DNA of 64,000 bases, from NCBI GenBank assembly GCA_964575305.1, contig CAZNPG010000005.1:505-64504 (forward strand), read 5' to 3'. Both the position numbers and the translations under genes were made by a program. The notes beneath the pieces are model-generated. The model was not told where the DNA came from and searched no databases. It saw nothing but the letters and a program-made list of their open reading frames with translations. Origin of the DNA: an uncultured Gammaproteobacteria bacterium. Lineage in GTDB: Bacteria; Pseudomonadota; Gammaproteobacteria; Magnimaribacterales; TMED112. Positions 3,413 to 64,000 of this stretch are shown one piece after another. Each line of letters starts with the position of its first letter. Within the stretch, counting starts at the first letter, position 1.

Positions 3413-4253
3413 ATTAAATGCCTATCTTGAACTCATAAGATTTTATAATCCGATTGGTTTCTGGTTGTTGCTTTGGCCTGGATTATGGGGCTTGTTCTTA
3501 TCGGATAATTTCAATATTTCGAATTTTACAATTGTGATCTTGGGCTCTTTTCTAACCAGATCTTTAGGTTGTGCCATAAATGATCTGAGTGATATGAAAT
3601 TCGATAAAAACGTTGAAAGGACAAAAGATAGACCGCTTGCGAATAATAGCCTATCCGTTATTGAGGCATTACTGTTTATCATTCTTCTAAGTGCTTGTAG
3701 CTTACTTCTTTTATCACTTACCAATATTTTCACTATTAAATTAGTTGGCTTAATAGCAGTGCCAATGATCATTATTTATCCATTAATGAAAAGGTTTATT
3801 GCTGTGCCTCAAATATTCTTAGGAGCTACATTTGGTTTATCTTTGCCTATCTCTTATTCAATTGCTGAAGGCACAATTAGCCTCGAAGTATTGTTTTTAT
3901 ATTTTGGTTGTGTGTTTTGGATCATTGCTTATGACACTTATTATGCTTTGTGTGATTTAGATGATGATAGAAAATTAAAACTTAATTCTGCTGCAATATT
4001 CTTTGGTGATGACGCTCGAAAAGCAGTAATAGTTTTTTCTTCTCTCTTTGTTTTGAGTATTCTCGTCCTCGCCTATAAAAATATCTCAAGCATTATTGCA
4101 GTTGGAGTTTTATTCCTTTTATATCAAATTTATTTTCAGGACCAGCTATCAAAATCAAATAAAAACCTAGAAGCTTTTAAAGCAAACAGCCAAATTGGTT
4201 TAGTGGTCGCAGTTTTATTATTTATTGAGAAGCAAAGTGAGTTTTTTAGTTGA
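3405..4253 (+). CDS. ubiA: 4-hydroxybenzoate polyprenyltransferase
   Basis: 282 aa polytopic protein with the UbiA prenyltransferase motif NDLSDMKFDKNVERTKDRPLA and a second Asp-rich block YALCDLDDD. Confidence 0.9.
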   Translation: MTKLNAYLELIRFYNPIGFWLLLWPGLWGLFLSDNFNISNFTIVILGSFLTRSLGCAINDLSDMKFDKNVERTKDRPLANNSLSVIEALLFIILLSACSLLLLSLTNIFTIKLVGLIAVPMIIIYPLMKRFIAVPQIFLGATFGLSLPISYSIAEGTISLEVLFLYFGCVFWIIAYDTYYALCDLDDDRKLKLNSAAIFFGDDARKAVIVFSSLFVLSILVLAYKNISSIIAVGVLFLLYQIYFQDQLSKSNKNLEAFKANSQIGLVVAVLLFIEKQSEFFS

Positions 4254-5325
4254 AGATAATCTAAATAAATCAAAGAAAACTTTTTCTAAACATCATTCTG
4301 GTGATCCCTTCTCATCTTTTAATTTTTTAAATGCTCTGCAAGAAACAAATTGCCTAGATGCAGATTCTGGCTGGATAGCTAAATGTTTGAATCATAAAAA
4401 TGGTACCGCTATACCTTTTTTTGAAAAGCTGAATAGCCAAGGGGAGTTTGTATTTGATTATGCTTGGGCTAATACCTTTCATCAGTATGGTCAGGCATAT
4501 TATCCAAAGCTTGTGATGAGTGTTCCTTTTACTCCTGTTGATGGTAAAAGAATTATTGGGCCGAATGATGCATCAAGATCAGAAGCTTTATCAAGCCTTA
4601 TAAATCATACAGAACAAAGCGAATATTCATCTCTTCATGCCCTTTTTGTTGAAGAGTCACAAAAAGATATCTTTAGAGATCTGAATTTTATAGAAAGATT
4701 AGACTGTAATTATAAATGGCAGAATAAGTCTTATCGTTCTTTCGATGACTTCCTTGATCAGCTAACTTCAAGACACAGAAAAAATATGAAAAAGGAAAGA
4801 GATTATATAAATAAACTCAATATAGAATTTGAACACATCGAAGATATTAAAGAACAAGATTGGAAGGATTTTTATTTATTTTATTCAATAACTTATGCGG
4901 TGCGAGGACAAAGGCCTTATCTTACATCTGCTTTTTTTCAAAGCATTACCGAACTAAATCCAATTTTGGTTTTTGCTCATAAAAATGGCCAAAGAATTGC
5001 TGCAGCGCTTTTTTTTCAATATGAAAATAAGCTTTATGGTAGATACTGGGGAACTAGAGAACCAATAAATTACCTTCACTTTGAATGCTGCTATTATCAA
5101 GGGATTGAGATGGCAATAAAAATGAATTGCACAGAATTTGATCCAGGAATTCAAGGCCACCATAAACTTAAAAGAGGATTTGAGCCCAATATTAACTCTT
5201 CTTTTCACTGGATAGTCGATGAACGTTTTAGAGAAGCAATTAGAAATTATTGCGCAACAGAATCAAAACAAATTATGCAATATTTCGAGCAATCAAAAGA
5301 ATATTTACCGTTTAAGAATGTCTGA
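4225..5325 (+). CDS. FemAB-like/GNAT-fold protein of the DUF482 family (function unknown)
   Basis: PFSSFNFLNALQETNC..GWIAKCL and a C-terminal HFECCYYQGIE..FDPGIQGHHKLKRGFEP resemble the DUF482 (PF04339) family. The track start is a TTG that overlaps the ubiA end, so the true start is uncertain (a GTG at 4237 is possible). Confidence 0.6.
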   Translation: MRSKVSFLVEDNLNKSKKTFSKHHSGDPFSSFNFLNALQETNCLDADSGWIAKCLNHKNGTAIPFFEKLNSQGEFVFDYAWANTFHQYGQAYYPKLVMSVPFTPVDGKRIIGPNDASRSEALSSLINHTEQSEYSSLHALFVEESQKDIFRDLNFIERLDCNYKWQNKSYRSFDDFLDQLTSRHRKNMKKERDYINKLNIEFEHIEDIKEQDWKDFYLFYSITYAVRGQRPYLTSAFFQSITELNPILVFAHKNGQRIAAALFFQYENKLYGRYWGTREPINYLHFECCYYQGIEMAIKMNCTEFDPGIQGHHKLKRGFEPNINSSFHWIVDERFREAIRNYCATESKQIMQYFEQSKEYLPFKNV

Positions 5326-55918: not shown

Positions 55919-56206
55919 ATGTTTTGGTACAAATATTTAAAATTTTTGCTGCGTTTTAGAAAAAAATCTGAGGTATCAAGTATTTCAGATGTTCTTGGCA
56001 AAAGCCTTATAAACAATGATGTTGCAAAAAACCTTTCTCAGGTCTACAAGGACTATTCTTATAGAGTAGAAATTAAAGAAATTAATGGTATATCAGTAGT
56101 TTGTGCCAGAGTTCGGTGTGGTGAAGCCCAAAACGAAACATCAGTAAAACACTGGTATGCTTATCAAGAGAGGTCTGGATCAGTAGCTTCTTGGTGCTTA
56201 GATTAA
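55919..56206 (+). CDS. Hypothetical protein
   Basis: 95-aa ORF with no recognised motifs; its 3' end overlaps the convergent gene. Confidence 0.3.
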   Translation: MFWYKYLKFLLRFRKKSEVSSISDVLGKSLINNDVAKNLSQVYKDYSYRVEIKEINGISVVCARVRCGEAQNETSVKHWYAYQERSGSVASWCLD

Positions 56207-56592
56207 TAGAATCTAGGTTTTTCTATATAATCCTCGTCTTTAAAATCTCGATCTTTTGTGCTTTTTAATCTTTTGATGGCTTGGGCGGAGAAGAATTTTC
56301 GCTCAAATCCTTTAAGTTCCATACAGTTTTTAAAGTATCTGCGTCTTTCATTCTGGCCTGCTTCCCAGCCAGCCTCATCTACAACTCTTGAAGGCACATA
56401 CACTGTTAGCATTTCATTTTCACAAGTTAAAGATGCGCTTCTTAGTCTTGATGCAAAGTCTTCTTCAGATAAACTTTTCAACCTATCGGTTATTGGCACA
56501 TATCGGTATTCGCCTTCTTCTTCTGATTGTTGCAGGGTTGAGCAACTAAACAATACAAAGACAATTGATAGTTGTAATAAAATTTTTAACAT
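56203..56592 (-). CDS. Hypothetical lipoprotein
   Basis: Lipobox VLFSC after a signal peptide. It starts 1 nt after the upstream MAPEG gene's stop. Confidence 0.45.
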   Translation of the reverse strand: MLKILLQLSIVFVLFSCSTLQQSEEEGEYRYVPITDRLKSLSEEDFASRLRSASLTCENEMLTVYVPSRVVDEAGWEAGQNERRRYFKNCMELKGFERKFFSAQAIKRLKSTKDRDFKDEDYIEKPRFY

Positions 56593-56593
56593 T

Positions 56594-56959
56594 TTAAACC
56601 AGGGCTAAAGCCATCATTACCATACAAATAATTGAGCCAATAAATGCAATTGTTCTAATGAACGGAATAGCCATTAAGTAGGTAATGCCATGAATTGTGC
56701 GCAATATTAACCACCAGCAAGCATACGTAGAAAGATCAACATCGAGATACATGGCTGCTAAAACCAAGGCTAAGAATGCAGCTAAACTTTCATGCAAATT
56801 AGCAGAAGCTCTATAGGCCCTTTTTAAAAGAACTGATTGGGTTGGTGTGCTATCTCTGGCTGTTAACATCCATGAGAAATTTTTAATATTTATTGTCATA
56901 GGTATTAACCATGACTGAAATAGTGTTAAAAGAAGAGCAAGTACTATGTAAATTTCCAT
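56594..56959 (-). CDS. MAPEG-family membrane protein
   Basis: 121 aa with 3-4 TM segments and RAYRASANLHESLAAF (the R..N..E motif). Confidence 0.6.
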   Translation of the reverse strand: MEIYIVLALLLTLFQSWLIPMTINIKNFSWMLTARDSTPTQSVLLKRAYRASANLHESLAAFLALVLAAMYLDVDLSTYACWWLILRTIHGITYLMAIPFIRTIAFIGSIICMVMMALALV

Positions 56960-57011
56960 AATTTTTTGTGTTTAAACACTAGATTAGCAAGAGCAACTTT
57001 TAAATTCAATT

Positions 57012-57377
57012 TTAGATCCACTCATCGTTGGGTGCGGTTAGTTTATCTAATGCATCGCCAGTATTGCGGATATTTTTAGGTTCAACAATCATAATTTTTG
57101 CTTCTTCTTCTGCAAAAGGCCTATGTTTAAGCCCTTTAGGCACAACTATCATCTCACCTTCCTGCAATGTTGTTGTCTTATCCTCAAACTCAATGCTCAT
57201 AGTACCTTCTATAACAATGAAGGCCTCATCTGTTTCTTCATGATGATGCCAAATAAAGTCGTTTTTAATTTTGACTAGCTTAAATTCATAGTCATTGAGC
57301 AGAGCTATTACTTTAGGCTCCCAATGCTCACTAAATTTAGAAAATTTTTCTTTAAAATTAATTTTTTTATGGCTCAT
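57012..57377 (-). CDS. Cupin-domain protein
   Basis: HHHEETDEAFIVIEG....F......L.EGEMIVVPKG..H.P, a two-motif cupin signature. Confidence 0.75.
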   Translation of the reverse strand: MSHKKINFKEKFSKFSEHWEPKVIALLNDYEFKLVKIKNDFIWHHHEETDEAFIVIEGTMSIEFEDKTTTLQEGEMIVVPKGLKHRPFAEEEAKIMIVEPKNIRNTGDALDKLTAPNDEWI

Positions 57378-57383
57378 ACTTTA

Positions 57384-58337
57384 TCAATAAATAATACCTG
57401 CCATTCTTTCAATAAACCAATAGAAACCAATGCCTCCCAATAAGTAACTGGATGCTGTTGCAAACCTTAGGTTTTGTTTTATTTTAAATGACATCCAAAT
57501 AAGCAAGGAAAACACAGGTATAAGCAAAAGTTGCCCAGCTTCAATACCAATATTAAAGAATAGTAACGACATAACTAACTGGTCATTTGCTATCCCTATA
57601 CCGGTTAATACATTAGCAAAACCAAGACCATGCAATAAGCCAAAACCAAAAGCTATCAACCAAGGAGTGTTTGTATATTTTTTCTTTTCCCCAACTTCAT
57701 AGGCCAGATAAACGATAGTTAGCGCTATAAGAGCCTCAACTGTAGCTTGCGGAATAGACACTATATTAAAAACCGATAAACCCAAAGTAATAGAGTGTGC
57801 AACAGTAAAAGCAGTGATAGTTTTTACTGCAACTATAAGGTTTGAAACCAAAAACAATAAACCAAAAATAAATAAGATATGGTCATTGCCTTCAAGCAAA
57901 TGATCAATCCCAAGACTAAAGTAAGCTGTCGGATAAATTTGTTTTTCCAATGGGATTTGTATAGTTGGGGATTTAGAGTTCATTATCCCCTCAAAAGTTG
58001 TGCCATCAAGCTCGACAAAAGTGATAAGTGCATCGGTGAGCACGCTTAAATTTACCACCTGAACAGATTCACCCTTAAGTGTGCTATTGCAAACAAGCCC
58101 GATACTTTCAACCAAGTATTTGCCTTTTTTTTCAATCTGTTTTGTTTCGCGTTTACAACTATCTGGAAAGTAAACCTCGCCTCTGGCTCCTATGTTTTTG
58201 ACAGGGTACATCCATTCTGCTTCATAAGAATTTGCTTTAATCTCTTTGACAACCAAATGGGCAGGGTTAAATTCATGCGCTTGAAGAAAAAAAGCAGTAG
58301 TAAAAAGTAGTGCAGAAAAGAGGGCTTTCTTGATCAT
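57384..58337 (-). CDS. HupE/UreJ-family metal transporter-like membrane protein with a periplasmic N-domain
   Basis: Signal peptide ending ..FFLQA, followed by HEFNPAH (the mature N-terminus starts with His). The C-terminal half has TM segments with DH.L.G.DH, AHSITL and GLLHGLGFA. Confidence 0.7.
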   Translation of the reverse strand: MIKKALFSALLFTTAFFLQAHEFNPAHLVVKEIKANSYEAEWMYPVKNIGARGEVYFPDSCKRETKQIEKKGKYLVESIGLVCNSTLKGESVQVVNLSVLTDALITFVELDGTTFEGIMNSKSPTIQIPLEKQIYPTAYFSLGIDHLLEGNDHILFIFGLLFLVSNLIVAVKTITAFTVAHSITLGLSVFNIVSIPQATVEALIALTIVYLAYEVGEKKKYTNTPWLIAFGFGLLHGLGFANVLTGIGIANDQLVMSLLFFNIGIEAGQLLLIPVFSLLIWMSFKIKQNLRFATASSYLLGGIGFYWFIERMAGIIY

Positions 58338-59149
58338 TAAAGTTGGTAGTTTGGGTTAATAATTACTTTATATTCCGCCTTAACACTATCTATATAATCT
58401 GCCAGCCGTTGTTCTTCTTCTTGTATAGCAAAATCTTGTCTTACCAAAACCTCAATAGCTTCGAATTTAGGCAGATAGCCTACTTTTTTATTGTTGATGT
58501 AGAGTAAATGTTTCCCATAACTAGATGAGTATGGGCCAGCCCATTTATTTAGTGTTGGATTTTCAAATGCATTTAAAAACCCTTTTCCAAAAGCTTGTTC
58601 AACCTGATCTAAACTATAATCACTAAAGTTTTTACCCAAGAAAAAGGGTTCAGCCTCTATTTTTGCATCCAGGCTGTTTAAGCTTTTTAAAGCAACCAAG
58701 GCTTTGGCTTCAGCATCCGGTGATTGTGCGAAATAGTAGTGCGTAAATGAATAAGTAGTTGGTACAAAATATTTGTTGCTGTTTGCTTCATAGAAAGCAA
58801 TTAATTGGTTAACTTTTGGTTCTTCTCGGTTGGTCTCTTGTTTCAGAAATGAGATTTTTTGGGCCAATCTCCTTTTTATAATTCTATCGTTTTGGTCTAG
58901 GCCGAGCCTAAGTGCTTCACGATATAGAATCTCTTCCTCAATATAATCGTTAACTATATTAAAAATTTCTTGTTCGTTGGGTGGTCTGCCAACTCGTGAG
59001 TCCCACGCAGCAAAAAGCCCGTCTAATTCCTGATCTGATACATAAATATCTTTAGTTTCTTCATCGTAATTCATAGAGATATCTAAAAAATAAATAACGA
59101 AGCCCAACAATAAGAATAAGATTATTCTTGAGTATGGTTTCAGGCTCAT
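58337..59149 (-). CDS. Membrane-anchored parvulin-like (Rotamase_2-type) PPIase/chaperone-like protein
   Basis: N-terminal TM helix, then EEILYREALRLGLDQNDRIIKRRLAQK and a C-terminal ..WAGPYSSSYGKHLLYI. The start makes an ATGA overlap with the DUF3604 stop. Confidence 0.55.
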   Translation of the reverse strand: MSLKPYSRIILFLLLGFVIYFLDISMNYDEETKDIYVSDQELDGLFAAWDSRVGRPPNEQEIFNIVNDYIEEEILYREALRLGLDQNDRIIKRRLAQKISFLKQETNREEPKVNQLIAFYEANSNKYFVPTTYSFTHYYFAQSPDAEAKALVALKSLNSLDAKIEAEPFFLGKNFSDYSLDQVEQAFGKGFLNAFENPTLNKWAGPYSSSYGKHLLYINNKKVGYLPKFEAIEVLVRQDFAIQEEEQRLADYIDSVKAEYKVIINPNYQL

Positions 59150-61230
59150 AGAGCGAATATGTCTATATCTTGCGGCACTGGTACATACCAAATTGGCGAT
59201 GACCAGGCTCGTTCTTGAATTGTTTTATGTAGGTCTGATCTTGGTTCTTCTCCTGCTTTAATAGCATCCCATGTTGACCACCTGCAAGTTGGATTCTCAA
59301 GAACCCTGACATAATAGAAAGCCTTGTTTTCTGGATTAAATTCTGGATCCTTCCATATTTTTTTAAGCTCTGTAGCTCCAACGTTATTAGTAATAGAACA
59401 ATCCTCTATATTTACCCTCGCACCATTATCAGGGCAGCGGTGTGTTGTTGGGTCAACCTCCAAACCATCAGAACAAACAACATCAAATACTTTTTCACTT
59501 GGCCTTGCGTTGCCGCTGTCTATTGAGCCTTTAATAATCTGGACTCTTTGTAGTGATGCTGAGTGTTTGTCTTTTTGTGCCCAAACTATAAACTCTGGAA
59601 CTTTTGCCCCATCGGCAAATAAGTCTGCCCCCATAGGCACACCGTTTTTATAAGCCTCATCGACCAAGGCTTCAGAGTTTATATCTATTGAGCTCAAATT
59701 ATAGCCAGAGAAAAATCGGACTGTGATCCTAGGTCCTGTGGTCGCAAAAGCTTCTTTTCTTCGGAGTGCTGAAAATATAGATTCTCTCGTATTTTCTTCT
59801 GCCCAGACTGCTGCTAAACCTGAAGATCCCCATTGGTCAAATCCAATAGCATAATTCTTGCCATCAACCTCACGAAAAGTCCTAGGCTGATTGTAATATT
59901 CTGAATATTGTATTAACTGTTCAGTCCTTTCTTCCGATAGAGATACGCTGCCTCTGCTTACAGCACTGCCATCTACTACTCCAACTTTTGACCAGAAATT
60001 GCTTTCATCGAATGATCCTGCTCCTAAGTGTGTGTCTGTAGATCCAATCAAACCGAATTTATATGGGTTACCTTGGCCTTTCCACTCCAACATCAATCCT
60101 CTTAAGTATGCATCCCTAACATAGCCCCCATGATGGTAACTATAGGTTGGTGGTCTTGCTCCCACTCTGCCATCCATAATTTCAAAGTCGGCCCATTCAT
60201 CATCAGGCGATAATAACGGGTGGGTATCTGATGTGCCTTTAACCTGAGTCATTTCGACAATAGGCTCATTGCGCATACGTCTTTCAGAATATGCCAAATC
60301 AATTGGTGTGCCATAGTAGGTTTCAACCTCAAACATCTCTCCATTTGACCCGTTACTGTTATGAGGAATTGCTATAGAGTCCAAGCCTTTTGCTCTTAAC
60401 TTGTCCATCCATGCCCATAGGTCCATAGGGTTTAAAGAGTCTTCTCGAGAAAATGGTCTTTCCGGTGCTTTAGAAGATTCAAAGATTACATTTCTATGTA
60501 AGTTGCCACCCTCAACGTCTGTACCAGATGTGTACTCATATCCAATAAAGGTAGTAAATTTGCCTGGATCATTATTTTCCTCAGCAGCTTTAGCAATGTC
60601 TGACCAAGCTGACTTATGCACTTCATAGTCAAATGCTTGAGAACCAACAGATCTATTTTTAGTAAAAATTGCTTGTAATATTTTTGGGTGCCACAGAGGG
60701 TATTGTCTATCTAAATAACCGTCTGCTGCCATCAAGCTAAAAAGATTTAGTCTTTCTGGCATAGAGTCAATCGTACGATTTTCCTCTCTATTAATATTTA
60801 CAAATGGTTTGGCCCATTCAGTGTTGGCTTGTTTAGAATTTGGATCTCCGTATTCTTGAATCATGCCCATAAAAATTGCGTGATCGGTAACAGCATAAAA
60901 ATCTAGAGGTTCTTTCAATTGCATTTCATAGCCTAGAGGGTGTTTGATCATTTGACCTTTAGCGTATCTATAGGCATCGTACGGAGTAGCATTTACTCCG
61001 AAAACATAAGCATCAAAAGAATATCTTGTGTGAACGTGCAGATCACCAAAATACGGATTTTTAAGTGGGTTTGGTGGAACATCGTTTACTTTGTTAGCTG
61101 TTTCTTCAATTGCATGGTCCACAATGTTGAGAGATACATCTTTTTGTAAAAGTTTATATGCTCCTGTGAAGTAAATTATATTGAGTGCCAGAATTACAAT
61201 TAACGCTACTGAAGTTTTAGATGTTTTCAT
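59146..61230 (-). CDS. DUF3604 protein (PHP-like metal-dependent hydrolase fold candidate), exported
   Basis: N-terminal signal/anchor, YFGDLHVHTRYSFDAY, then DHAIFMG and HNSNGSNG; 694 aa. Confidence 0.65.
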   Translation of the reverse strand: MKTSKTSVALIVILALNIIYFTGAYKLLQKDVSLNIVDHAIEETANKVNDVPPNPLKNPYFGDLHVHTRYSFDAYVFGVNATPYDAYRYAKGQMIKHPLGYEMQLKEPLDFYAVTDHAIFMGMIQEYGDPNSKQANTEWAKPFVNINREENRTIDSMPERLNLFSLMAADGYLDRQYPLWHPKILQAIFTKNRSVGSQAFDYEVHKSAWSDIAKAAEENNDPGKFTTFIGYEYTSGTDVEGGNLHRNVIFESSKAPERPFSREDSLNPMDLWAWMDKLRAKGLDSIAIPHNSNGSNGEMFEVETYYGTPIDLAYSERRMRNEPIVEMTQVKGTSDTHPLLSPDDEWADFEIMDGRVGARPPTYSYHHGGYVRDAYLRGLMLEWKGQGNPYKFGLIGSTDTHLGAGSFDESNFWSKVGVVDGSAVSRGSVSLSEERTEQLIQYSEYYNQPRTFREVDGKNYAIGFDQWGSSGLAAVWAEENTRESIFSALRRKEAFATTGPRITVRFFSGYNLSSIDINSEALVDEAYKNGVPMGADLFADGAKVPEFIVWAQKDKHSASLQRVQIIKGSIDSGNARPSEKVFDVVCSDGLEVDPTTHRCPDNGARVNIEDCSITNNVGATELKKIWKDPEFNPENKAFYYVRVLENPTCRWSTWDAIKAGEEPRSDLHKTIQERAWSSPIWYVPVPQDIDIFAL

Positions 61231-61318
61231 TTATTCCCCTTTAAATGTACCGTTAATTTTAACCTATTTTTTAAAACTAGAATCAAATAAAAGGTAAGAC
61301 ATTAAGTGAAATAATAAA

Positions 61319-62419
61319 CTAGAAGCTTTTTTTGTAACCAACTACTATTTGGTATTTGGTGTCCATTTGAAGGTTATATTTTTCTTGGATCACGGGAAAC
61401 AATACTTCTACACCAAGCATATCATTGCCATTAGCAAACAAATCAAGATTGTAATTAGCTCCAAAACCGACATGTAATTCGCTGCCGCCATAGTTTTCAG
61501 GGTTGGCAGTTTGCACTGGTGCTGTGATCATAGCGTTTGCTCCAGAAACCTCGCCTTGGTTGGTAAGTTTTAATCTTGTTGAAATCGATAAATTTGGTAG
61601 ATACTGATATTGTAACCAGGAATTAAGTTCTATTTGATCACCAAATGCCCAGCCTTTTTCATGAATTACTTTTTTGAATCTGGCCTGATTAGACCAAGTT
61701 GTTTTGTCTTTAATTTTTTTTGAATTCGTTAGCCCTAAAGTCAATCTGGTGGCTTTATCACTTGATTGCATGGCATAAGGCAAAATCATATTCATATAAG
61801 TGCCCATTGGTGTGAGAACCTGATCTTTATCATTGTTTTTACCAATAGATTTTTGATATGAAACTTCTCCATGCCACTTTGAATCACCTGTCTCTGATAG
61901 AACAAAGAATGCGCTCAATGTTATATCAGAAAGATCGCTTGAACTTGTATTAAATTGACCAATTAGATCTCTATCCATCATCGCTGAATAGCTATTTAAA
62001 GCCATATCCTTTGAGAGATAAGTGCACATCACCATATAAGTAATGTCTTGGGTTGGGGCATACATTGCTTCAACCATAGTCATCTGCATATCCATGTTCT
62101 TTGGAATAACTGATAAGTTTGCAGGCATGCTGCTAATTTCATTTGGAATTTGTAGTATCTCAGAGTTTGAAATACTGTTTCCATCAAGGGAGTTGCCACT
62201 CATATACATGTGGCCTTGTTTAATACCTAACATCCATCCCATATGATGCATGTTGCCAACCACTCCAATTGGCGCTGATGAATGATTGCCAGAATGAGCC
62301 ATGTGGTCCATGTGATCCATGTGGTCTTCTTTGTGCATATCATGCTTCATGCCATCTTGCTCTTGGCAAGAAAAAACAAAAGCAGATAACATTAAAGTTG
62401 TTAGAAATAAGTTTTTCAT
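61319..62419 (-). CDS. Outer-membrane beta-barrel protein with an N-terminal His/Met-rich segment (lipobox)
   Basis: LSAFVFSC, then DGMKHDMHKEDHMDHMDHMAHSGNHSS..GNMHHMGWM..GHMYMSGN. Alternating beta-strand patterns follow, and the C-terminus ends ..VVGYKKSF (aromatic). Confidence 0.55.
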   Translation of the reverse strand: MKNLFLTTLMLSAFVFSCQEQDGMKHDMHKEDHMDHMDHMAHSGNHSSAPIGVVGNMHHMGWMLGIKQGHMYMSGNSLDGNSISNSEILQIPNEISSMPANLSVIPKNMDMQMTMVEAMYAPTQDITYMVMCTYLSKDMALNSYSAMMDRDLIGQFNTSSSDLSDITLSAFFVLSETGDSKWHGEVSYQKSIGKNNDKDQVLTPMGTYMNMILPYAMQSSDKATRLTLGLTNSKKIKDKTTWSNQARFKKVIHEKGWAFGDQIELNSWLQYQYLPNLSISTRLKLTNQGEVSGANAMITAPVQTANPENYGGSELHVGFGANYNLDLFANGNDMLGVEVLFPVIQEKYNLQMDTKYQIVVGYKKSF

Positions 62420-62949
62420 TTGGGTTTAAAAAATAACACAATTCCTGTTATTGCTGTAAACAATGCAATAAAAGAAAATACTTTTAATAAGATATTGTCG
62501 ATATTGTCTCTTTCAACCCAATCCATAATATGAAACCCCCACATTAGATCCCAAATCCTCCATTGTTGTGATCGAATAGCAACAATTTCTCCTGTATATG
62601 GGTTTTGATAAATATTTAATTCTTCTCCATCTGTGTTTTCAGCCAAAACCTTATAAAGAGGCAGGTCTCTGCCCCGATATTCGGACCCTTTTTTTGGCTC
62701 CTCTACCAACTCAATTGTTATTGGTTTAAGAACCGTTCGTTGTGTGATGATTTCAAAAACACTTTCTTGGGATAGTTTTTCTTGAATAGCTGGCTTAACA
62801 ATTACTGCGGCTTTTTCAGTTTTGTAGTATTGCTCTCCTCTTACATTTTCAATTTTATTAAATGAGAAGTAGATTCCAGAAACAGTCCACAACAGGAGCT
62901 GTAGTGAAACAACAAGACTAATGTATTTGTGTAGTTTTCTTAGGTTCAT
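62416..62949 (-). CDS. PepSY-domain membrane protein
   Basis: MNLRKLHKYISLVVSLQLLLWTVSGIYFSF (a PepSY-associated TM helix), a central PepSY-like domain, and a second C-terminal TM segment. It has an ATGA overlap with the downstream gene. Confidence 0.6.
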   Translation of the reverse strand: MNLRKLHKYISLVVSLQLLLWTVSGIYFSFNKIENVRGEQYYKTEKAAVIVKPAIQEKLSQESVFEIITQRTVLKPITIELVEEPKKGSEYRGRDLPLYKVLAENTDGEELNIYQNPYTGEIVAIRSQQWRIWDLMWGFHIMDWVERDNIDNILLKVFSFIALFTAITGIVLFFKPK

Positions 62950-62956
62950 GTTCTAG

Positions 62957-63358
62957 TTAATCGTGGCAAGAATCACACTCAAGCGCTTTACATGCTTGGT
63001 GGTTTCTATAGTGGGCAAAGATAACAATTAATGAGCCAGCTACAGTAAGGGTTTTTTCTAGTGTCTCGCCTAAAACTGCCTCACCTAGATAATAAGCTGT
63101 GCTTAAAACAGATAAACCACATAAGCCTATGATAAATATGAATAACTCTTTATGGTTTTTAAGTCCTTGTATTAATGCATAAACACTAACAGGGACAGCA
63201 AGCAATAAAATAATAAAATGTAAGAATTCATTATCAATCGAAAACGAGAGGAACCCGGAAGTAAGAATTAAAAAAGAGGGCATAAACAAGCAGTGCAATG
63301 CACATAGCAGTGATAAAGATCCGGCTAATTTGTCTGTAGTTTCTTGTGTTTTAATCAT
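62957..63358 (-). CDS. MerC-domain membrane protein with a Cys/His-rich C-terminus
   Basis: GSLSLLCALHCLFMPSFL (the CxxHC motif in TM1), four TM segments, and a tail HYRNHQACKALECDSCHD. Confidence 0.65.
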   Translation of the reverse strand: MIKTQETTDKLAGSLSLLCALHCLFMPSFLILTSGFLSFSIDNEFLHFIILLLAVPVSVYALIQGLKNHKELFIFIIGLCGLSVLSTAYYLGEAVLGETLEKTLTVAGSLIVIFAHYRNHQACKALECDSCHD

Positions 63359-63424
63359 TTTTTTTAATTAGCAATTTTGCCTAAATAAGATAATAGGTAG
63401 TCTTAGGATTTAAAATTTAAACTA

Positions 63425-63466
63425 TTAGCAGCAAGAGCACTCGCAGCATTTACAACAATCACACAT
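63425..63466 (-). CDS. 13-codon cysteine-rich micro-ORF MCDCCKCCECSCC (candidate thiolate metal-binding micropeptide or Cys-codon leader)
   Basis: My reverse-strand reading is ATG TGT GAT TGT TGT AAA TGC TGC GAG TGC TCT TGC TGC TAA TAG. It lies 31 nt after the HXXEE gene stop and 66 nt before the MerC-like start, on the same strand. No clear SD. It is absent from the supplied ORF track, presumably because of its size. Confidence 0.35.
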   Translation of the reverse strand: MCDCCKCCECSCC

Positions 63467-63497
63467 AAATTAATTGTAGCACAACCTGATAAACCGT

Positions 63498-64000
63498 CTA
63501 TTTAGCTGATTGCTGGCTGGCAGCATGGTAAGTAAAAGCAAGGTAATAAATTACAGATATTAGAAAAGCTCCCAGCATAACTATTGGTCCAATAAATTCA
63601 AATAAGGCGAAGGTGCTAGCCCCAATAATAAACAAACCAAATACTTCTTTCATGTTATTTAAATAACCTTCTCTTATTGCTGCTTTAAAAATTAAATAAT
63701 TCACTGGTAAGTAGAGCAGAACTCCTGTAATTGCACCTGGGCTAAAGTCTTGAAAATAAAAACTAAAGAAAACATGAAAGCATGCATTTACAACCTGAGT
63801 GGTCATTAAAAAGAACAGCAATATATGTGCGCTAGGTTTATTCTGCTTTATCAAATGAACATATACAGCTATTAATAAGACAACTGCCAGCCTGATTAAA
63901 ACTTCTTCAGAAGAAAGCGGATTATTATCAGCAAAATAACTAAGGCGCCAATCTCTGAAATTGAAAATAATGTGTTCTTCAAAATGGTGAATTAAATAGA
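63498..64000 (-). CDS. HXXEE-domain membrane protein; the 5' end runs off the window
   Basis: The track starts it at a TTG at 63854, but the frame stays open to the window edge. My translation upstream reads ..YLIHHFEEHIIFNFRDWRLSYFADNNPLSSEEVLIRLAVVLLIAVYVHLIKQ.., which contains the HxxEE signature. Confidence 0.6.
   Translation of the reverse strand, partial: YLIHHFEEHIIFNFRDWRLSYFADNNPLSSEEVLIRLAVVLLIAVYVHLIKQNKPSAHILLFFLMTTQVVNACFHVFFSFYFQDFSPGAITGVLLYLPVNYLIFKAAIREGYLNNMKEVFGLFIIGASTFALFEFIGPIVMLGAFLISVIYYLAFTYHAASQQSAK

Follow-up and report, generated by a model that had tools for sequence, protein, structure and literature searches.

A single-copy polycysteine micro-ORF across SAR86 and in phages: a putative leaderless, metallothionein-like peptide

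The copper metallothionein of Neurospora crassa holds seven cysteines in 25 amino acids, and the CCxCC motif occurs in the alpha-domain of vertebrate metallothioneins. Phytochelatins, with the structure (gamma-Glu-Cys)n-Gly, are made enzymatically from glutathione, and trpL, hisL and pheL are the classical amino-acid attenuation leader peptides of Gammaproteobacteria. Bacterial metallothioneins include SmtA/BmtA, PflQ2 MT and MymT, the BmtA/SmtA type being about 55 amino acids long with a zinc-finger-like fold and a Cys9His2-type cluster (PMC7387436). In mycobacteria, unannotated leaderless short open reading frames (ORFs) rich in cysteine codons are proven cysteine-responsive attenuators, described as a ‘Cys ribulon’ (Canestrari et al. 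2020, bioRxiv 10.1101/834739). Several such loci occur per genome, each upstream of cysteine-metabolism genes; an RNA duplex sequesters the downstream ribosome-binding site unless it is blocked by ribosomes stalled in the cysteine tract, and some of these ORFs also have conserved non-cysteine residues (bioRxiv 10.1101/834739). Here we describe a 13-codon micro-ORF with eight cysteine codons, located on the minus strand (63425..63466) of a 64,000-nt stretch of contig CAZNPG010000005.1 from an uncultured gammaproteobacterium, hereafter “the window”, and compare it with these systems.

The encoded peptide resembles metallothioneins, phytochelatins and polycysteine leaderless short ORFs, yet differs from each in size, genetic architecture or context. 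With the metallothioneins cited above it shares a low molecular weight, a very high cysteine content, C-x-C and C-C motifs, the lack of aromatic or hydrophobic residues, small or charged spacers (Lys, Ser, Asp, Glu and Thr) and, in SAR86, a setting among metal-handling genes. However, with 13–15 residues, 53–62% of them cysteine, it is roughly half the size of the smallest metallothionein known to us, and it departs from the Cys9His2 proteins of the SmtA type in having no histidine, no zinc-finger-like fold and no SmtB-type regulator seen among its annotated neighbours. It is similar to phytochelatins in size, in thiol density, in the alternation of acidic residues with cysteine and in a presumed chelation of thiophilic metals, but it is a ribosomal product, has ordinary peptide bonds and contains vicinal Cys-Cys pairs. 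The likeness to the Cys ribulon lies in a leaderless ORF at the 5′ end of the transcript that annotation missed, with runs of two or more cysteine codons in succession and the position of first cistron, the leaderless start being judged here, like the peptide itself, from sequence. Unlike the mycobacterial ORFs, the SAR86 one is single-copy, with a fixed cysteine framework, hydrophilic spacers, neighbours that are not a cysteine-related operon, neither an attenuator in the window nor a computed duplex sequestering the ribosome-binding site, and phage homologues led by a Shine-Dalgarno sequence. It is likewise a short ORF enriched in the codons of one amino acid upstream of other genes, as are trpL, hisL and pheL, but it has no terminator/antiterminator hairpins and no cognate biosynthetic operon downstream, and is leaderless instead of Shine-Dalgarno-led.

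We favour, with a probability of about 0.55, the reading that the micro-ORF is a genuine translated single-copy gene, expressed from its own promoter as a leaderless mRNA, whose product would be a miniature metallothionein-like peptide binding thiophilic metals. Within this reading, metal binding and the choice of metal are the parts that we hold less firmly.

A micro-ORF of eight cysteine codons and its family

Read on the minus strand from 63466 to 63422, the element is ATG TGT GAT TGT TGT AAA TGC TGC GAG TGC TCT TGC TGC TAA TAG, with the start codon at 63466-63464, a first stop at 63427-63425 and a second, in-frame stop at 63424-63422. The product, MCDCCKCCECSCC, has eight cysteines among 13 residues, including three CC pairs, and eight TGY codons among the 12 that follow ATG. 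The initial annotation had described this double-stopped ORF and judged its cysteine density very improbable by chance, and both points hold: with a cysteine-codon frequency of 3% over all frames, eight or more cysteines in 12 codons have a probability of about 3e-10 per position, or about 4e-5 expected occurrences in the window. A six-frame scan ranked the micro-ORF as the strongest cysteine cluster of the window, every other 13-codon stretch having at most six cysteines. Other cysteine-rich stretches (near nt 20-60, 1175 and 1640, plus strand) were rejected as micro-ORFs and are read as alternative frames of ordinary coding sequence, because they lie inside overlapping Ala/Pro-rich shadow ORFs and a 416-residue minus-strand gene. 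No longer ORF covers the site on either strand, and an Rfam scan of 62800-64000 (E ≤ 10) returned chance-level matches only, none of them over the micro-ORF. The element is also, as first noted, more GC-rich than its surroundings (42%, the spacer on its two sides having 19% and 32%), and Pfam confirms its placement, in one orientation, between an HXXEE-domain gene (PF13787) and a MerC-like gene (PF03203). The intergenic spacer, 63359..63497, measures 139 nt and not the 137 nt first given.

The micro-ORF is not a local oddity but a member of a family found across SAR86 and in phages. We searched metagenomes with a degenerate pattern fixing only the initial Met and eight TGY codons, and genomes with a slightly tighter pattern (one genome per species, 185,579 bacterial and archaeal species, 596 Gb). 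This yielded about 45 metagenome loci encoding M-C-[DE]-C-C-x-C-C-x-C-x-C-C-x-K, besides (TGY)n microsatellites, and 83 genome loci, whereas we estimate that chance alone would produce about 0.01 matches to the pattern in 596 Gb. All 80 genome record titles listed, out of the 83, name either the SAR86 cluster, including SAR86A, SAR86E and a complete SAR86 chromosome, or single-cell or metagenome-assembled genomes (MAGs) of unclassified Gammaproteobacteria/Pseudomonadota. From this we conclude that the window, too, derives from a SAR86 bacterium. One micro-ORF was found per genome, with a sole exception, MAG RS582, which has two (only the exact cysteine framework was searched genome-wide), and a nucleotide hidden Markov model (HMM) run over 1.7 Mb of collected loci detected no extra or decayed copies. 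By these scans, the micro-ORF family is conserved clade-wide in SAR86 and is essentially single-copy. The two copies of MAG RS582 (PBXH01; L154 and L183) lie on different contigs and encode different peptides, MCDCCKCCECSCCSK and MCDCCNCCKCSCCSK, which could reflect a true duplication or a mixed bin.

In total, the family comprises 117 unique loci, with 83 distinct ORF nucleotide sequences and 51 distinct peptides, among them MCDCCKCCECSCC (window) and MCDCCDCCECSCCSK (a further form); MCKCCKCCNCTCC is a phage form. All contain eight cysteines within 13–17 residues in the framework CxCCxCCxCxCC. The usual length is 15 residues, and the 13-residue product of the window is a rare truncation of the SAR86 form MC[DE]CCxCCxCxCCxK. 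This common form has a C-terminal Lys, and many of its variants contain no other Lys or Arg. The synonymous TGT/TGC variation for which the initial annotation had suggested looking was observed, both codons being in use at each of the eight cysteine sites. Codon 14 is represented by 16 different codons, nearly all encoding Ser, Ala, Thr, Pro or Gly, codon 15 encodes Lys by either AAG (64 cases) or AAA (30 cases), and the ORF always ends after 13–17 codons. At the six variable positions only D, E, N, Q, K, S, T, A, P and G occur, with R added when the phage forms are counted, and no hydrophobic or aromatic residue is found at any of them, whereas random codons drawn from this AT-rich composition would specify such a residue in about 40% of cases. 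The GC content of third codon positions is 0.01–0.29 in codons 2-6, as expected for a translated 5′ end free of structure, and 0.63–0.88 in codons 7-10 and 13. On this pattern of substitutions, the spacer residues, the length and the C-terminal Lys of the peptide are under peptide-level selection.

Contigs related to the window were obtained via homologues of its MerC-like protein. Identical or near-identical micro-ORFs occur in L001, L009-L012, L046, L132 and L148, and loci with a 97–98% identical MerC have the same micro-ORF. In L009 and L010 (MerC 86% identical), the upstream gene differs (DUF6607) and the intergenic flanks cannot be aligned with those of the window, yet the sequence from TGCTACAAT through the micro-ORF is 100% identical at the nucleotide level save for the first stop, where TAA is replaced by TCA (Ser). 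The resulting 14-residue peptide ends at the TAG that forms the second stop of the window (63422..63424, minus strand), which is thus the working stop of these sister lineages; L012 has TAA like the window. Where MerC is 74–76% identical, nothing is found upstream of it because the micro-ORF sits downstream of MerC, ahead of a DUF3604 or SMR transporter gene, and encodes a 15-residue peptide with a C-terminal Ser-Lys. The micro-ORF is intact even where MerC is only 46–55% identical to that of the window and the intergenic flanks are unalignable. In every relative that has it the ORF is intact and no decayed copy was found, so that the frameshift or loss beside retained flanking genes that the initial annotation had named as counter-evidence was not encountered.

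These relatives also led us to reject the micro-ORF as a conserved upstream partner of MerC, the role in which it had first been cast: its position and neighbours vary, it stands downstream of MerC or ahead of unlike genes, and three MerC lineages have no copy in range. In the 24 loci of these three lineages (L235-L258), neither a micro-ORF nor a remnant was detected by nucleotide HMM and a relaxed cysteine scan within the 6–10 kb fetched around MerC. The same loci have a SAR86-like gene content and a MerC 59–60% identical to that of the window, in different and more stable surroundings (Glucosamine_iso, adenylosuccinate lyase and nitroreductase, or Rieske, GST and DSBA). Separately, a different conserved element, TTTATTTATATTTAYTTTCC...GAAAAAYTGTTAGGCTATAAA, was seen about 90 nt upstream of the MerC start in L002-L008, where the micro-ORF is downstream of MerC; it is probably a promoter or operator of MerC itself.

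Promoter, start site and phage homologues

A promoter scan of the window identified an extended -10 element, TGcTACAAT (63473..63481, minus strand), whose TACAAT hexamer (63478-63473) ends 6 nt before the ATG. This element is unchanged between the window and L009 despite their diverged flanks. The arrangement is general in the family: exactly 6 nt separate a TATAAT-like hexamer from the ATG in 104 of the 117 unique loci, position -1 is a pyrimidine in 107, and the consensus reads TTAGTnTAtAaT-N5-Y-ATG, with neither a recognisable -35 element nor a Shine-Dalgarno sequence in the upstream regions of these loci. A weak -35-like hexamer of the window, TAGACG (63495..63500, minus strand), which overlaps the HXXEE stop codon, is therefore doubtful, because the family as a whole carries no information content at that position. 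A hexamer at -12 to -7 would put position +1 on the first base of the start codon, the A at 63466, and the micro-ORF would accordingly be transcribed and translated as a leaderless mRNA.

For comparison, a hexamer at this spacing precedes 4 of 63 ordinary genes of the window, against a background of 0.6% per position, and Shine-Dalgarno-like motifs precede 13 of the 63. SAR86 genes may often be initiated without a leader or independently of a Shine-Dalgarno sequence. The four genes, whose start codons were crudely assigned, begin at about 11062 (plus strand) and 2720, 51598 and 45575 (minus strand), with about 0.4 expected. The form TTAGTnTATAAT was considered as a generic SAR86 promoter and rejected, as it has no other occurrence in the window; since the upstream TAGTnTAWAMT form is found nowhere else in the window, it is part of the promoter of the micro-ORF and not a general promoter form. 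Co-transcription, which had been proposed from the shared orientation of the genes, thus needs to be restated: the MerC-like gene is probably the second cistron of the micro-ORF transcript, but with a near-consensus -10 element of its own the micro-ORF is independent of read-through from the HXXEE gene.

The same cysteine pattern was found in 16 viral contigs (L216-L231) and three metagenome loci (L041, L073 and L096). The phage-type peptide, M-C-[KTR]-C-C-K-C-C-[NS]-C-T-C-C-(E), has 13–14 residues and a cysteine spacing identical to that of the SAR86 peptide, with basic spacers where those of SAR86 are acidic, and its genes also display synonymous variation. These copies lie among tightly packed genes, with AAGGA, AGAGG or AGGGG 5–9 nt ahead of the ORF. 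The contigs have 32–38% GC and represent at least five different gene contexts, with genes for a small terminase subunit and a cytidyltransferase among the neighbours. Their closest deposited phages are T4-like Kyanoviridae, namely Phage C48C1, Methylophilales phage Melnitz and pelagimyophage HTVC008M, none of which has the micro-ORF at the syntenic position beside the cytidyltransferase gene. A third arrangement occurs in a SAR86 genome (L214), in which the peptide MCDCCDCCECSCCAK is encoded behind TTGACA-N17-TATAAT, a leader of about 20 nt and an AGAGG Shine-Dalgarno sequence, and is hence not leaderless. The use of three initiation arrangements for the same peptide argues strongly that what has been conserved is the peptide itself and not any one RNA leader.

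On the 103-kb viral contig L218, the micro-ORF (at 3577) stands directly upstream of an IscU-like ORF (3630-4061; NifU_N, E 1.3e-37) and an IscA-like ORF (4042-4359; Fe-S_biosyn, E 1.3e-13). This arrangement (region ~3577-4360), for which blastn against the phage collection returned no match, may point to a connection with Fe-S or metal-thiolate chemistry in the course of infection. A literature search on phage metallothionein genes found nothing relevant, and the presence of such a peptide in phages is new. Similarly, in the literature searched SAR86 is nowhere connected with metallothionein, with cysteine-rich peptides or with leaderless mRNAs, and the peptide strings do not appear. The micro-ORF belongs to an undescribed and unannotated family, in line with the initial statement that no described family is known to have this sequence, none having been met in the literature or in Rfam. 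The shortness of the peptide, below the 20- and 40-residue minimums of the tools, may explain its absence from protein-level resources.

Metal binding, cysteine sensing or thiol chemistry

In the metallothionein-like reading, the -10 element 6 nt upstream of the ATG would drive a leaderless mRNA from the A of the start codon, and the transcript would usually run into the next co-oriented gene, which in the window means the MerC-like gene, PepSY_TM, a putative barrel protein, DUF3604 and onward. The peptide would bind Zn, Cd, Cu(I), Hg and possibly Fe in the cytoplasm, in the manner of a metallothionein or of a gene-encoded phytochelatin, and would buffer, store or accept metal handled by neighbouring membrane proteins; more speculatively, the MerC-like protein, which has a CALHC motif in its first hydrophobic segment and a Cys-rich C-terminal tail (CKALECDSCHD), could hand thiophilic metal to it. 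A metal-thiolate role is suggested by the cysteine content, the CxC and CC motifs, the small or charged spacers, the single copy and the residence among metal and thiol detoxification genes. Among the possibilities raised in the initial annotation, which also included a leader and a non-translated element, a minimal metallothionein-like peptide is the one best supported by the comparative data, through synonymous variation and peptide selection, but it is not a partner specific to MerC.

Several observations weigh against this interpretation. The invariance of the cysteines is partly an effect of ascertainment, because the search patterns require all eight TGY codons; the samples that do not depend on the pattern are the 12 MerC-anchored loci (about five lineages, all intact) and the 24 loci, in three lineages, that have no copy in range. 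Codon choice in the 3′ half opposes the genome bias, with GAG preferred to GAA at codon 9 (81 vs 9), AAG to AAA at codon 15 and TGC used in 90% of cases at codon 13. Together with the complete nucleotide identity between the window and L009, this points to some extra constraint at the nucleotide level, beyond what a peptide model can account for by itself. Among the annotated neighbour clusters, which are a part of all clusters, no regulator of the ArsR/SmtB, MerR, CsoR or Zur type was seen beside the micro-ORF. A leaderless polycysteine first cistron is, by analogy, exactly the arrangement of the proven mycobacterial attenuators, and a peptide of 13–15 residues with eight free thiols could equally perform redox or sulfur chemistry. 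Finally, we infer the transcription start, translation and metal binding alike from the DNA sequence.

The rival that survives best, which we regard as live although unlikely, is a cysteine-sensing leader, in which slowing of the ribosome on cysteine codons at low Cys-tRNA charging would alter expression of the downstream cistron, the peptide being a by-product or having a dual function. Charging would fall, for example, when reduced sulfur is limiting or when thiophilic metals deplete thiols. The precedent is the mycobacterial Cys ribulon, whose validated architecture of an unannotated, leaderless short ORF with consecutive cysteine codons at the head of a polycistronic mRNA is matched here. 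In 69 of 75 genome loci the next gene downstream runs in the same direction as the micro-ORF, at a median distance of about 65 nt and often only 12–70 nt away, and no terminator separates the two, terminator-like hairpins after the ORF being no more frequent than in controls (22/113 loci vs 34/196). The unusual codon choice and the identity of ORFs between diverged loci also hint at constraint on the RNA. However, the downstream gene is convergent in the remaining 6 of 75 genome loci, for instance a cyclase gene 32–57 nt away in L150, L152, L156 and L196, which leaves nothing there to regulate, and the co-oriented genes are heterogeneous (MerC, GloB, BD-FAE esterase, HXXEE, NosD-like, SMR, DUF3604, PNP_UDP_1, PepSY_TM and others), with no gene of cysteine or sulfur assimilation seen among the annotated downstream clusters. 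A single leader placed ahead of many operons as a regulon was rejected, given one copy per genome and no extra or decayed copies in 1.7 Mb. The phage and L214 copies are moreover Shine-Dalgarno-led, those of phages among unrelated gene arrays, and the spacer residues, the length and the C-terminal Lys are under selection at the peptide level. The micro-ORF thus appears to be normally a first cistron that is nevertheless kept where nothing follows on its strand, and the single copy together with the heterogeneous and sometimes convergent downstream genes indicates that the function belongs to the ORF and not to a target gene. A dual role, as peptide plus leader, is possible.

Folding of the RNA gives the leader model mixed support. 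The leader RNA of the window has a minimum free energy of -18.3 kcal/mol, unremarkable against shuffled sequences (z = -0.36), and the spacer ahead of MerC is not conserved across the lineages that have MerC downstream. The CCUAA..UUAGG stem noted at first is present in the sequence but lies outside the minimum-free-energy fold, and the initial impression that no clear terminator precedes the MerC-like start proved right, nothing terminator-like being found in 63359-63421. A hairpin inside the ORF (positions 20-39) was set aside because its pairs are uninformative, TGY codons pairing as G-C or G-U whichever synonym is used. One subfamily, with peptides ending in ...CDCCS or ...CDCCK and mostly with glyoxalase II downstream, does form a 9-bp hairpin, ATTGTTGC-TCATAA-GCAACAAT, which spans the last three codons of the ORF to 9 nt past the stop codon, with the stop in its loop (L047, L075, L081, L144, L170, L180, L188, L193, L195, L198, L199, L201, L202, L206, L210 and L212). 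Pairing is kept in 94.8% of cells, with a single compensatory change (L210) and several others that preserve it as G-U, and 41 of 500 shuffles do as well; the lineage of the window does not have this hairpin.

In the ...CDCCS subfamily (L144, L210, L047, L201 and others), a palindrome, AATTAGCAA-N12-TTGCTAATT, lies at -47..-17 from the ATG, overlapping the -35 region, and may represent an operator. The idea of an operator common to the whole family, upstream of the promoter, was rejected, inverted repeats being weakly enriched overall (29% vs 20%) and a clear palindrome being confined to this subfamily. A divergent module of an Xre-type helix-turn-helix (HTH) gene and DUF6249 is often adjacent in the same subfamily.

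We consider it improbable that the peptide instead serves thiol, redox or sulfur chemistry, as a low-molecular-weight thiol buffer, a persulfide or sulfur carrier, or an iron-sulfur/Fe(Cys)4 mini-peptide acting with detoxification or Fe-S assembly enzymes. The glutathione-linked neighbours would suit such a role, with glyoxalase II/HAGH as the next gene after the ORF in 16 loci and glyoxalase-like, GFA, MAPEG and DoxX genes nearby, as would the IscU-like and IscA-like genes immediately after the ORF in L218. However, the Fe-S association is found in only one of the at least five phage contexts, the variable neighbourhoods hold no conserved single partner enzyme, and the cysteine spacing is unlike the CxxC motifs of ferredoxin or rubredoxin. 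This explanation also overlaps with the metallothionein-like one, from which it is hard to separate by sequence alone.

A GC-rich motif that acts untranslated, as DNA or as RNA (for instance a protein-binding site or small RNA), and is open in one frame by accident might account for the identical ORFs of the window and L009 within diverged flanks and for an ORF RNA slightly more stable than synonymous resamples (-8.5 vs -7.3 kcal/mol), but is effectively excluded by third positions that vary freely while frame, start, stop position and residue classes are kept, and by phage and L214 versions with a Shine-Dalgarno sequence at the right distance, and it offers neither an Rfam match nor a rationale for the fixed spacing from -10 element to ATG.

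In the surface ocean SAR86 ranks among the most abundant heterotrophs, and this micro-gene is conserved across the clade and was acquired by phages. If the peptide binds metal, it would be the smallest gene-encoded metallothionein-like molecule known, a concrete and synthesizable candidate for the means by which streamlined oligotrophic bacteria cope with thiophilic metals that are scarce or toxic, and a possible origin of the thiol-type metal ligands of seawater, a chemically unidentified pool of strong ligands. We tentatively extend the metallothionein-like reading further, to a scenario that we think rather unlikely in full: SAR86 and T4-like marine phages would encode the smallest ribosomal metallothionein (13–15 residues, eight thiols, leaderless in SAR86), storing or buffering Cu, Zn, Cd and Hg and supplying ligands to seawater after lysis or export, the phage copies being a new type of auxiliary gene for the metal and Fe-S economy of the host. 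If it is a cysteine sensor, ribosome-mediated polycysteine attenuation would extend from Actinobacteria to marine Gammaproteobacteria. Either way, the locus would provide a clean example of leaderless expression in a gammaproteobacterium, and its recovery illustrates that comparative nucleotide pattern searches can find functional micro-genes overlooked by annotation.

Genomic island and flanking genes

Across SAR86, the micro-ORF lies in a flexible island of mostly co-oriented small genes, the order of which differs between genomes (window 56000-64000; L133-L215). Within 4 kb on either side of 81 genome loci, the most frequent neighbours were MerC (47%), HXXEE (32%), DUF6249 (31%), glyoxalase-like (28%), SMR (26%), Xre-type HTH (HTH_3, 26%), PepSY_TM (23%) and glyoxalase II (20%). 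DoxX, GFA and MAPEG genes also occur, as do the gene of the barrel protein and a pair formed by a NosD-like beta-helix protein and a CxxCH protein. Functions in thiol, electrophile and metal detoxification abound in the island.

In the window, the gene upstream of the micro-ORF encodes an HXXEE-domain membrane protein (63498..64000, minus strand; Pfam E 1.9e-11), of which only the 3′ part is included, the start lying beyond the end of the window; the complete gene in L001 encodes 180 amino acids. Downstream, 66 nt from the micro-ORF, is the start of the gene for the MerC-like membrane protein (62957..63358, minus strand; 133 amino acids, E 1.9e-23). The AT-rich spacer between the micro-ORF stops and this start (63359..63421, minus strand; 19% GC) has no terminator, stable fold or Shine-Dalgarno sequence, and its first ~20 nt (TTTAAATTTTAAATCCTAA) are conserved within the lineage while the remainder is not.

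The co-oriented downstream genes, all on the minus strand, continue with PepSY_TM (62416-62949), the putative barrel protein (61319-62419; 366 amino acids, no Pfam match), DUF3604 (59146-61230), a PPIC-type rotamase (Rotamase_2, 58337-59191) and HupE_UreJ_2 (57384-58337). This gene set (57384..62949) recurs near the micro-ORF, in shuffled order, in other SAR86 loci, where the barrel protein often co-occurs with PepSY_TM. The N-terminal region of the barrel protein is rich in His and Met (MHKEDHMDHMDHMAHSGNH...MHHMGWM), recalling periplasmic or outer-membrane copper- or zinc-binding motifs.

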